From the IMG/VR virus record IMGVR_UViG_3300001149_000098: 4,918 bases of DNA, one strand, 5' to 3'. Positions 2,409 through 4,918 of this stretch are shown piece by piece. This DNA comes from a virus (Duplodnaviria; Heunggongvirae; Uroviricota; Caudoviricetes). The position numbers were made by a program, and so were the translations under genes. Positions within the stretch are counted from its first letter, which is position 1. Each line of letters opens with the position of its first letter. Under the pieces are notes generated by a model, which worked only from the letters and a program-made list of their open reading frames with translations, was not told the origin of the DNA and made no database searches.

Positions 2409-2440
2409 TGTTAACTATTTGATAAATATTAAATTAATTT
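2395..2440. other. Predicted prophage-chromosome junction (att core region) between the ydfJ stub and the integrase 3' end
   Basis: The host-like transporter reading frame ends at 2408 and the integrase stop is at 2434-2436. The intervening DNA is strongly AT-rich (tgttaactatttgataaatattaaattaattttt) and contains an IHF-consensus-like 13-mer on the - strand (2412-2424). The exact core cannot be defined without the other prophage end. Confidence 0.45.
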
Positions 2441-3728
2441 TTCATTGCTTCGTTATGGGGCATGGTTGGGGCAAACTCGCTTAACTGTGTATTTAACAAA
2501 GCTACCTGTGCATTATTGTTTTCAGACATCCATTTTCCGTATACCTGAAATACCATTTGCGCATCTGCATGGCCCATCTGGTTTGCTATAAATGCCGGGT
2601 TAGCACCAGCTGTCAGCGACCAGCAGGCATAAGTATGTCTCGACTGATATGATTTTCGATGGCGGAGTCCGGCACGTTTTATCGCTGCGTCCCACATCTG
2701 CCTTATTGAGTCAACGGTAAAATGGTCACCATAATTTTTTACTCTCGCTGACACTTCAGGTTGAAAAACAAAGGTGCATTTTGTTTTTCTGTTCTGCCAT
2801 ACTCTCTGAGGTGAACATCAATGATATGCTCTTTGCTCAGTCTCGTTAATGTCATCTGACTCCGGAGAGCGTCGATTGCTGGCTTAATAAGATGAATGAC
2901 CCGATTGGTTCCCGCCTGTGTTTTTGGTACCGTGAAACGGTCTTTTGCTAAATTTCTCCTGATCATCATTGTTCCATTTTTCAGATCTATGTCCTCCCAT
3001 CCAAGTGCACACAGCTCACCAGGGCGAATGCCAGTATAAACAGAAACACACCATAAATTTTTTGCTTGCTGATTTCTGCACGCATCGATAAGACGGATAA
3101 ATTCCTCCCGCGAAAGAGGATCCGGAATGGTTCTTGATTCCTTTAATGGCGAGATCCCCTTAAACGGATTATCTGCCAGGTAACCGTTATCAACACCAAA
3201 CTGGAACACGGCGTTAAGATTTGTCATGTAATTATTTACAGTTACAGCCGATCTCCCTGGTTGTGTAACAATATAGTTACTTTTGGGGATCTGGTATCCA
3301 GTCAGTAGCTCTTTACGAACCTCCAGTAATTTTTCTTTATTAATCGATGAGGCAAGATTTTTTTCACCGATTATGCTCAGGATATTTTTGATGACGGCAC
3401 GGTATGTGTTGAGTGATGTTTTGGCGACTTCAGTTTCTTTTAGTGCCAGAAATTTTTCAGCCAGTTCTTTTATGGTTAAATCTTGTCGGGCCTCACCAAA
3501 TTTTTCCAGATTGCGTGAGGAGGGAAACTGTTTTGCATAGTCGAAAACACCAGTTTTTATTGCGTAACAAACAGAGGCGCGTAGTTCACCTGCAACGCGC
3601 CTGTTTTTTGCTGTGTCAGGAACCCCCAGATTTTCCCTGACTCTTACGCCTTTATAAACAAACCAGATACGTAATTTCCCTCCATGGTTTTCCACGCCTG
3701 TCGGATATTTCATTTCAACTTCTCTCAT
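2434..3728 (-). pseudogene. intQ: Phage tyrosine integrase (IntQ/IntR-like, N-terminal arm-binding domain), disrupted by a frameshift into 329-aa and 106-aa frames
   Basis: The 329-aa frame (2739..3728) has an N-terminal MKYPTGVE..GKLRIWF arm-binding-type motif, box I Arg (TGIRPGE) and the conserved Lys (PKTQAG). The 106-aa frame (2434..2754) has box II (SRHTYACW) and the His/Tyr nucleophile region (GHADAQMVFQVYGKW). The frames overlap at 2739-2754 and differ by one base. The shift must lie within 2742..2817 and probably sits in an A5 or T5 run (2764-2768 or 2784-2788 on the + strand). The start may be the second ATG at 3713 (MKYPTGVE), which has a better purine-rich stretch upstream. Confidence 0.85.
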
Positions 3729-3747: not shown

Positions 3748-3885
3748 TCAAGTAAGATGACGTCTTGGTCTCGCTGATGCCTGGCGCTCAATCCAGCGAT
3801 CAATTTCTTCCAGGTTGTAAAAGCATGGACTGTTATCCCATGGCATACCGTCATGAGCGACATGCTTATATTCCCTTCCTTCCAT
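3748..3885 (-). CDS. Excisionase-like small protein (DUF1233-type pattern); 45 aa from the first ATG, with the open frame extending upstream to 3966 without a canonical start
   Basis: Hand translation of the - strand gives MEGREYKHVAHDGMPWDNSPCFYNLEEIDRWIERQASARPRRHLT*, with stop TGA at 3748-3750, 19 nt upstream of the int start in the same orientation (classic xis-int arrangement). The W.EG.EY...DG...FYN.EEIDRWI pattern resembles putative excisionases. The same frame continues upstream as RHVSEEQLIALKGIKKGTLKKAREKSF with no ATG, GTG or TTG. Confidence 0.5.
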   Translation of the reverse strand: MEGREYKHVAHDGMPWDNSPCFYNLEEIDRWIERQASARPRRHLT

Positions 3886-3941
3886 AAACGATTTTTCCCG
3901 GGCCTTTTTTAACGTACCTTTTTTTATTCCTTTCAGCGCAA

Positions 3942-4448
3942 TTAACTGCTCTTCGGATACATGGCGTTAACTTCTGGCATTTTCATCAACGCTTCAACGA
4001 TATGTCCGTCGAATGTTGCCATGTCTTCCTGCAACAATTCCTGTGCGCTAATAACCATATCAACGGTGATGTTTTCACATGTGTCGAACTTAACCATGAC
4101 AGCGTTCTGTACTTCAGGGGCCAGCTTGTCAAAAGTGACGTTCATCGGATCGGATTCAGTCTCAACCGGGACAAAAGAAGCAGACTCCTCATCCCAGCGG
4201 TTTTCCTGCATATATTCAGCATCCCATGAATCGAGGGCAGGGCGGGGTATGCCAGGTTTATCCTCGCAGACAATAAATTTATAAGCGCAGTCCTGAGCAG
4301 CCGGATAATGTTCCAGGAACTGCCAGTGAAATTTTGCTCGAGCACGGCGTTCGTCGCCAGCTTCAATGGCTGTGGCTACAGCCACAGCGCCTTCTTCCCT
4401 TGTTGCCAGTTCGTCAGGAATAGCGGCGCAAATAAAGACTTTACTCAT
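3942..4448 (-). CDS. Highly acidic 168-aa prophage protein of unknown function (positional counterpart of Qin ydfE)
   Basis: ORF 3942..4448 with ATG at 4448-4446 preceded by GAGG about 9 nt upstream. Hand count gives about 32 Asp+Glu against 14 Lys+Arg, with no obvious transmembrane segment or catalytic motif. It lies between ydfD and the xis-like ORF, co-oriented with the dicB operon. Confidence 0.65.
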   Translation of the reverse strand: MSKVFICAAIPDELATREEGAVAVATAIEAGDERRARAKFHWQFLEHYPAAQDCAYKFIVCEDKPGIPRPALDSWDAEYMQENRWDEESASFVPVETESDPMNVTFDKLAPEVQNAVMVKFDTCENITVDMVISAQELLQEDMATFDGHIVEALMKMPEVNAMYPKSS

Positions 4449-4541
4449 TTTGTTTTAACCTCATGACAGATTTAAGGATGAACAAATCCCTGCCATTGCT
4501 GGCATATAAGAATGAAACCGGATATTTATTACGGAACTGTT

Positions 4542-4733
4542 TTAAAGACCTGCCGGGATTTCGATATTATCCTGGTGAATAACTTTATCGACCGGGTAAC
4601 AGTTACCGGGAATTTTCTGTTCGGTTGCTGCAGTCATACACTCCTGCATTGTCCTGTGAACACTGTCTGCAATATCAACTGGCTCTCCGGAAACAAGAAA
4701 AACTGTCAGAACAAGCGCAAATGCTGAATTCAT
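4542..4733 (-). CDS. ydfD: Qin-prophage small lysis protein YdfD, 63 aa, with N-terminal hydrophobic segment
   Basis: The ORF track gives an 81-aa frame (4542..4787). The ATG at 4733-4731 (MNSAFALVLTVFLVSGEPV...) is preceded by AAGGA about 8 nt upstream and yields 63 aa, the known size of YdfD. Its start overlaps the dicB stop as ATGA. The N-terminal hydrophobic stretch fits a membrane-acting lysis protein. Confidence 0.7.
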   Translation of the reverse strand: MNSAFALVLTVFLVSGEPVDIADSVHRTMQECMTAATEQKIPGNCYPVDKVIHQDNIEIPAGL

Positions 4734-4918
4734 TGTGTACATCCTTTTGGCATCAGACGTAAACGAGCCAGCATTGAAACAATGCATATTTTATTTAATA
4801 GCTCCCGTTCTTGTTTTCTCTTGTTAATGGCATCTTCAGTAAATACAGGGTTACTGATAGTGACACCAATTTCAAAACAACCTTCAGACGTATTAACGTT
4901 TGGTAATAACGTTTTCAT
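4730..4918 (-). CDS. dicB: Cell-division inhibitor DicB (MinC-dependent), 62 aa
   Basis: 62-aa ORF starting with ATG at 4918-4916 (the window edge) and ending at TGA 4732-4730. The sequence MKTLLPNVNTSEGCFEIGVTISNPVF... is recognised from memory as DicB; size and position immediately upstream of ydfD match the Qin dicB operon. The upstream dicF sRNA would lie beyond the window. Confidence 0.75.
   Translation of the reverse strand: MKTLLPNVNTSEGCFEIGVTISNPVFTEDAINKRKQERELLNKICIVSMLARLRLMPKGCTQ

Follow-up and report, generated by a model that had tools for sequence, protein, structure and literature searches.

A conserved ATGA overlap joins dicB and ydfD in a Qin-type prophage and may contribute to ydfD translation

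The junction between dicB and ydfD raises the question of what it means for two prophage genes to share their stop and start codons, i.e., whether the second gene is translated by way of the first and whether the two products work as a unit. It lies on the minus strand of the stretch of DNA analyzed here (the window, 4,918 nt), and a preliminary description took it for a device for stoichiometric co-expression of a toxin/antidote-like or exclusion module. Our own account is that the genes are dicB and ydfD, that ydfD starts at the ATG overlapping the dicB stop, and that DicB would mask YdfD lysis indirectly by halting division. Taken as one explanation, we give it a probability of about 0.8. 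The features at its core are the following.

4730..4918, minus strand: dicB coding sequence, 62 aa and a TGA stop (ATG at 4918, TGA at 4732-4730), cell-division inhibitor
4542..4733, minus strand: ydfD coding sequence, 63 aa and a TAA stop (ATG at 4733-4731, TAA at 4544-4542), DUF1482-family lysis protein
4730..4733, minus strand: ATGA stop/start overlap of the ydfD ATG (4733-4731) and the dicB TGA (4732-4730), read from the sequence

Across the junction the minus strand reads ...CCAAAAGGATGTACACAATGAATTCAGC..., also ...ATGCCAAAAGGATGTACACAATGAATTCAGCA..., with A4733, T4732, G4731 and A4730 as the four bases in common. The positions first proposed for the stop and the start are exact, and RefSeq annotates the same 4-nt overlap in the identical BL21(DE3) locus (L001), where dicB occupies 5001-5189 and ydfD 5186-5377. 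The gene names also hold, as 61 of 62 DicB residues and 61 of 63 YdfD residues are identical to those of K-12. DicB matches the Pfam family PF05358 DicB over residues 1-62 of 62 (E=3.3e-40, 136 bits, cut-off 27) and NCBIfam NF049927 with 132.3 bits, above the cut-off of 100. YdfD matches PF07358 DUF1482 over residues 4-61 (E=7.8e-25, 87 bits, cut-off 25) and PHROG phrog_1092 (E=1.9e-35), and its RefSeq name is "lysis protein YdfD". A search of complete E. coli genomes matched positions 4300-4918 of the window in 4,284 out of 5,426, and the identity is 100% in BL21(DE3), REL606, E. coli C and further genomes. The locus is the already characterized dicB-ydfD pair of the Qin cryptic prophage, adjoining the chromosomal rspAB genes; the genes and what they do, as well as the co-transcription and partial overlap of the two, have been published before and are found in RefSeq.

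In the identical BL21 locus the DicF sRNA, recognized by Rfam RF00039 with 72.5 bits, is located 174 nt 5' of the dicB ATG, outside the window, and dicA/dicC-type repressor genes are found farther upstream. Past dicB-ydfD, the BL21(DE3) RefSeq order is truncated exonuclease VIII, excisionase, frameshifted integrase, rspB and rspA. The "ydfE" ORF at 3942-4448 of the window (minus strand, 168 aa) corresponds to the first ~166 residues of a phage exonuclease of ~823 aa (phrog_2082, E=4e-123) and carries the RefSeq label "exonuclease VIII, incomplete"; relatives of full length occur in Salmonella contigs (L253, L256) and contain the domains YdfE_N, YdfE_C and Rv2179c-like exonuclease. The excisionase gene annotated by RefSeq, xisR (L001 5977-6171), corresponds to window positions 3748-3942 on the minus strand, and its first codon (3942-3940) has one base in common with the TAA stop of the exonuclease fragment (3944-3942). 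As this codon is ATT, which is not canonical, the annotated start may be non-canonical or wrong; the first canonical start in the xisR frame is ATG 3885. The intQ-type integrase at 2434-3728 (minus strand) consists of two overlapping ORFs, 2739-3728 and 2434-2754, and is listed as "frameshifted" in RefSeq. This end of the prophage is degenerate in the present DNA, as in K-12. The chromosomal flank covers 1-2246 on the plus strand, with rspA at 1-1215 followed by rspB (RefSeq start ~11 nt past the rspA stop), and the prophage-chromosome junction must lie between ~2246 and 2434. K-12 annotates a small gene, ynfP, in the matching interval.

The overlap stands only if ydfD begins at ATG 4733, and we therefore looked for an alternative start that would break it. 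Upstream of 4733 in the window, no stop interrupts the ydfD frame as far as ATG 4787, and a second in-frame ATG is found at 4742. Initiation at these codons would give a YdfD of 81 or 66 aa overlapping dicB by 58 or 13 nt, and some gene callers do produce the 81-aa or 66-aa forms (P0004, P0008, P0073). Among 110 distinct homologous contexts, however, the upstream in-frame ATG is missing in 19 and an in-frame stop lies at most 8 codons upstream in 17, while an ATG (or GTG) matching 4733 is present in every one. ATG 4742 is made by the Gly-Cys codons of DicB and falls inside the Shine-Dalgarno (SD) motif, leaving a spacing of zero. The conserved N-terminus of the YdfD family, MN[ST]xF, starts at 4733, as does the fit to the Pfam DUF1482 model, in which residue 4 of the 63-aa product is the first to align. 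A length of 63 aa is also the one listed in RefSeq and EcoGene-type annotation, and the protein found to be lytic in experiments is this form. We rejected the longer YdfD on conservation and regard it as extremely unlikely. Start conservation, the MN[ST]xF motif, the Pfam model and the AAGGA motif 8 nt upstream together place the ydfD start at ATG 4733, as the preliminary description had it, and the overlap thus stands.

4742..4746, minus strand: Shine-Dalgarno-like AAGGA, 8 nt 5' of the ydfD ATG, in dicB codons Lys58-Gly59

This motif is written in dicB codons that do not vary. Gly59 is GGA in 105 of 105 and Lys58 is AAA in 101 of 101 sequences from 107 dicB haplotypes, which is suggestive only, as the haplotypes are related and many further dicB codons are invariant too. 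The remaining glycines of DicB are encoded by GGT or GGC. In diverged lineages GGAG, AGGAG or TAAGGAAG stands at the AAGGA position, and an SD-like motif occurs 6-9 nt 5' of the start in every junction lineage examined. The invariance of the Lys58 and Gly59 codons suggests, and is compatible with, a functional ribosome-binding site inside dicB.

To follow the junction across relatives, 244 loci with a YdfD homologue were gathered from viral and genome contigs, and these collapse to 109 distinct dicB-ydfD haplotypes. The genome-contig scan gave 5 loci only, all near-identical, and the first viral-contig scan gave only loci of at least 95% identity; the diversity came from re-querying with diverged homologues, tblastn of a phage collection and exact-protein look-ups. 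A DicB ORF lies immediately upstream of the YdfD homologue in all 244 loci. Identity among the 109 haplotypes goes down to 53% for DicB and 63% for YdfD, and the spacing is -4 (ATGA, or GTGA with a GTG start) in 92, a 2-nt spacer in 15, and disrupted in 2 broken copies. The 2-nt-spacer haplotypes (L117 and 14 more) have a TGG-to-TGA change at DicB codon 61 that leaves a DicB of 60 aa, and judging from these the final two DicB residues are evidently dispensable. Variation along DicB is also greatest in its C-terminal tail (CTQ, CAQ, CWQ, YWQ, YKQ, EWR, ENL). A contig from a Veillonella parvula MAG (L086) carries an E. coli-type ydfD of 86% identity, which is most likely a binning contaminant and not a Firmicute homologue. 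The more diverged junctions are arranged as follows.

PPompW-type phages: DicB upstream, GTGA, -4
Salmonella-type DicB: DicB upstream, 10-nt overlap (or TAATG from a second ATG)
Citrobacter-type DicB: DicB upstream, 1-nt spacer
Citrobacter and Salmonella phages: 66-aa ORF without a Pfam match upstream, TGATG, -1
Klebsiella phages: 37-aa non-DicB ORF upstream, ATGA, -4

The DUF1482 genes that follow non-DicB ORFs in the Citrobacter, Salmonella and Klebsiella phages show ~40% identity to YdfD. These upstream ORFs lie at ~500-701 in Citrobacter phage Omnitron (L248) and Salmonella phage SW-37 (L249), and at 591-704 in a Klebsiella phage (L250), where the C-terminus of the 37-mer (...VCYMLAQKGDPS) bears a faint resemblance to that of DicB. 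In the phage collection DUF1482 adjoins DicB in all 20 DicB-bearing records, and 6 DUF1482 records are without DicB. The K-12 chromosome also carries a stand-alone DUF1482 paralogue, yebW (L252 5122-5313), 104 nt 3' of yebV and beside the phosphatase gene pphA, and this gene has no neighboring dicB; members of the YdfD family are thus not tied to DicB. Since some DUF1482 genes overlap a gene other than dicB, the tight junction looks like a property of the operon rather than of DicB. Furthermore, YdfD opens with ATG AAy (Met-Asn), which makes the TGA of dicB automatic, so that DicB may end earlier but never later. The TGA being forced by YdfD codons, conservation of the overlap is not independent evidence of selection for coupling. 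The ATGA overlap is real and conserved, yet not unusual.

Is ydfD then translated through dicB? Reinitiation requires an overlap or a very short spacer and collapses at a spacer of ~20 nt (PMC10666635). The structural preconditions for termination-reinitiation are present at dicB-ydfD, as the genes are on the same strand, they overlap, the SD lies inside dicB, and a common transcript is reported, the longest dicBF transcript detected being ydfABC-dicFB-ydfD (PMC10448788). An earlier study likewise has dicB and ydfD sharing one operon and partly overlapping (PMC8835842). We propose that ydfD would be translated from the AAGGA SD contained in the final codons of dicB. Since dicB stops within the start codon of ydfD, some of this initiation would be expected from ribosomes that have just terminated on dicB, and termination-reinitiation probably operates beside de novo initiation. 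Whether coupling provides most of the ydfD translation is harder to say from the junction, and we consider the chance to be just short of even. De novo initiation at AAGGA is equally possible; a reasonable SD at 8-nt spacing would permit an independent start. The "stoichiometric co-expression" of the preliminary description was inferred from the ATGA alone, and equal protein amounts from an ATGA pair would demand a coupling efficiency of ~100% (PMC6728339). Our literature search found no published test of dicB-ydfD coupling, no ribosome-profiling data on ydfD and no work on DUF1482.

The overlap might also have no regulatory meaning, with ydfD translated independently from its own SD and the 4-nt overlap reflecting the default packing of phage early operons. 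The AAGGA at 8-nt spacing is what such a gene would use. The stability of the junction RNA is not unusual (single-sequence fold, z=0.03) and RNAalifold returned 0 conserved pairs over 14 diverged junctions, so the ydfD ribosome-binding site looks accessible to free ribosomes; an RNA structure acting as coupling device was rejected on the same data. The overlap length also varies by lineage (-10, -4, -1, +1, +2), and DUF1482 genes overlap unrelated ORFs in the Citrobacter, Salmonella and Klebsiella phages. In E. coli, co-directional gene pairs show the -4 ATGA more often than any other spacing, 707 of 2,987 pairs lying within -8 to +6 (PMC10666635). Yet all lineages examined stay within -10 to +2, where reinitiation works, and none has drifted to +9 to +12, where E. 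coli operon genes with independent initiation typically lie (PMC10666635). Assays of five native E. coli ATGA pairs can be read in both directions, as three were strongly coupled and menDH to ~60%, i.e., four of five, while bioBF was uncoupled (PMC6728339). Mere compaction of this kind is in our view quite possible, although we would not bet on it.

A genetic observation also bears on this choice. When dicB and dicF were replaced by FRT scars in a chromosomal Plac-dicBF construct, growth inhibition was relieved with ydfD still downstream (PMC5069750). This fits a loss of ydfD translation once dicB is removed together with the SD in its 3' end and the ribosomes that terminate on it, and in that sense it speaks against independent translation. 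It also fits a YdfD level too low for lysis from a single copy. A stronger form of coupling would be a fail-safe interlock, where ydfD is translated essentially only by ribosomes finishing dicB, and the lysis protein never appears without the division inhibitor that masks it. If true, the interlock would account for ydfD lying at -10 to +2 nt in every DicB-bearing lineage, and for the harmlessness of the induced operon that lacks dicB and dicF despite an intact ydfD; we offer it tentatively and think it rather unlikely. The extent to which ydfD depends on dicB translation matters for the way in which a lysis gene is kept harmless in a cryptic prophage. It also affects the interpretation of published dicB deletion phenotypes, as loss of dicB also takes away the ydfD SD and the terminating ribosome.

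Downstream of ydfD, the consensus scan gave one feature.

4481..4504, minus strand: weak terminator-like hairpin (TGCCAGCAATGGCA; 4504-4491) with a T-rich tail (GGGATTTGTT), 38 nt past the ydfD stop, in a scan whose count is not above shuffled expectation

The putative hairpin would fit the longest dicBF transcript, which ends after ydfD, with none detected into ydfE (PMC10448788).

The functions cited for the two proteins agree with the literature. K-12 DicB binds MinC and blocks Z-ring formation, and via MinC it inhibits ManYZ, which makes cells ~100-fold resistant to lambda and to other phages that depend on ManYZ (PMC6832061). That the present DicB has the same MinC and ManYZ activity is assumed from its 98% identity to the K-12 protein. 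The 63-aa K-12 YdfD is lytic, and co-expressed DicB or SulA prevents the lysis (PMC8835842); protection by DicB is also reported elsewhere (PMC11430063). Since either division inhibitor suffices, lysis by YdfD depends on ongoing division. Derepression of the operon by the Rem antirepressor leads to filamentation through DicF and DicB, and DicB is the most toxic product of the operon. We propose that DicB masks YdfD lysis indirectly by halting division and would not be a cognate antitoxin, and that the net outcome in the derepressed operon would be filamentation and not lysis.

These observations leave the toxin/antidote-like reading weak. A true toxin-antitoxin or addiction pair would have YdfD as toxin and DicB as its dedicated antidote, with a fixed ratio required. 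The protection by DicB would be expected of such a pair, and so would the adjacency of the two genes in 244 of 244 Escherichia-type loci and in the 20 DicB-bearing phage records. SulA, however, is an unrelated division inhibitor and protects as well, so protection acts via the division block. DicB is moreover the stronger growth inhibitor, and removal of dicB with dicF relieves toxicity without unleashing YdfD (PMC5069750). The gene order does put the "antidote" first, but this antidote is itself toxic and direct binding is unreported. DUF1482 proteins also occur without DicB in phages and as chromosomal yebW, and a PADLOC search gave no match for DicB, YdfD or the YdfE fragment. We therefore consider a dedicated toxin-antitoxin pair very unlikely. 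The proposed exclusion module is likewise weak as a pair, as lambda resistance needs dicB and deletion of ydfD has minimal effect on it (PMC6832061). From the combined literature, DicB alone is the exclusion factor.

The YdfD protein does carry the N-terminal hydrophobic segment attributed to it.

4689..4724, minus strand: codons of the N-terminal hydrophobic segment, YdfD residues 4-15 (AFALVLTVFLVS), from hydropathy

Residues 4-14 (AFALVLTVFLV) form the hydropathy maximum, with a Kyte-Doolittle mean of 2.95. The AlphaFold2 model, built on an alignment of 43 sequences, places a helix at residues 3-15, at low confidence (mean pLDDT 62, pTM 0.35). In the 43 sequences C32 is invariant and C45 is at least 90% conserved, and two YdfD cysteines were also remarked upon previously (PMC8835842). 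YdfD is reported to act by binding IspG and blocking the MEP pathway, a mechanism that comes from a single paper using pull-down, FRET and rescue (PMC8835842), and that does not sit easily with an N-terminus resembling a signal peptide and with two conserved cysteines. Two rare proteins, P0096 (108 aa, from an ENA contig) and P0128 (92 aa), contain both DicB and DUF1482 Pfam domains. In P0096, DicB residues 1-60 are fused in frame to YdfD from residue 16, with loss of the hydrophobic segment. It resembles a deletion fusion and is probably a mutation or an assembly artefact.

Compared with known systems, the closest is the dicB-ydfD pair of Qin in K-12 MG1655 (b1575-b1576), which has the same genes in the same order with the same ATGA overlap, DicF upstream, and the ydfE/exonuclease fragment, int and then rspB-rspA downstream. 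The present proteins differ from those of K-12 by A61T in DicB and by V6A and V23D in YdfD (98% and 97% identity). In K-12, ydfE holds an IS2 fragment (insD7), whereas the present DNA has none, and its exonuclease fragment abuts the excisionase gene.

Lambda Kil and Rac KilR are, like DicB, small proteins that kill the host or block its division. Their genes belong to the early-left operon, where they lie between immunity region and exo/recE-type recombination genes and are repressed by the prophage repressor. Whereas DicB works through MinC, their action on FtsZ is a different one, and neither is known to have a DUF1482 partner.

With respect to the junction, the E. coli pairs hyfHI, astDB and ydbH/ynbE studied by Huber et al. 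2019 (PMC6728339) resemble dicB-ydfD in being co-directional, in their 4-nt ATGA, and in that the upstream gene contains, in its 3' end, the SD of the downstream gene. In these three pairs coupling is a measured property, whereas for dicB-ydfD it is a prediction from sequence. Subunits of heteromeric complexes are overrepresented among ATGA pairs (PMC10666635), whereas DicB and YdfD are not known to form a complex.

YdfD itself can be compared, as has been done before (PMC8835842), with the single-gene lysis proteins phiX174 E, Qbeta A2 and M LysM. The likeness lies in its small size and hydrophobic N-terminus, and in a division-dependent lysis via blocked supply of cell-wall precursors. It differs in that the reported target, IspG, is cytoplasmic and acts upstream of lipid-carrier synthesis, and in that ydfD is an early-operon gene of a tailed temperate phage, which is expected to own a holin-endolysin cassette.
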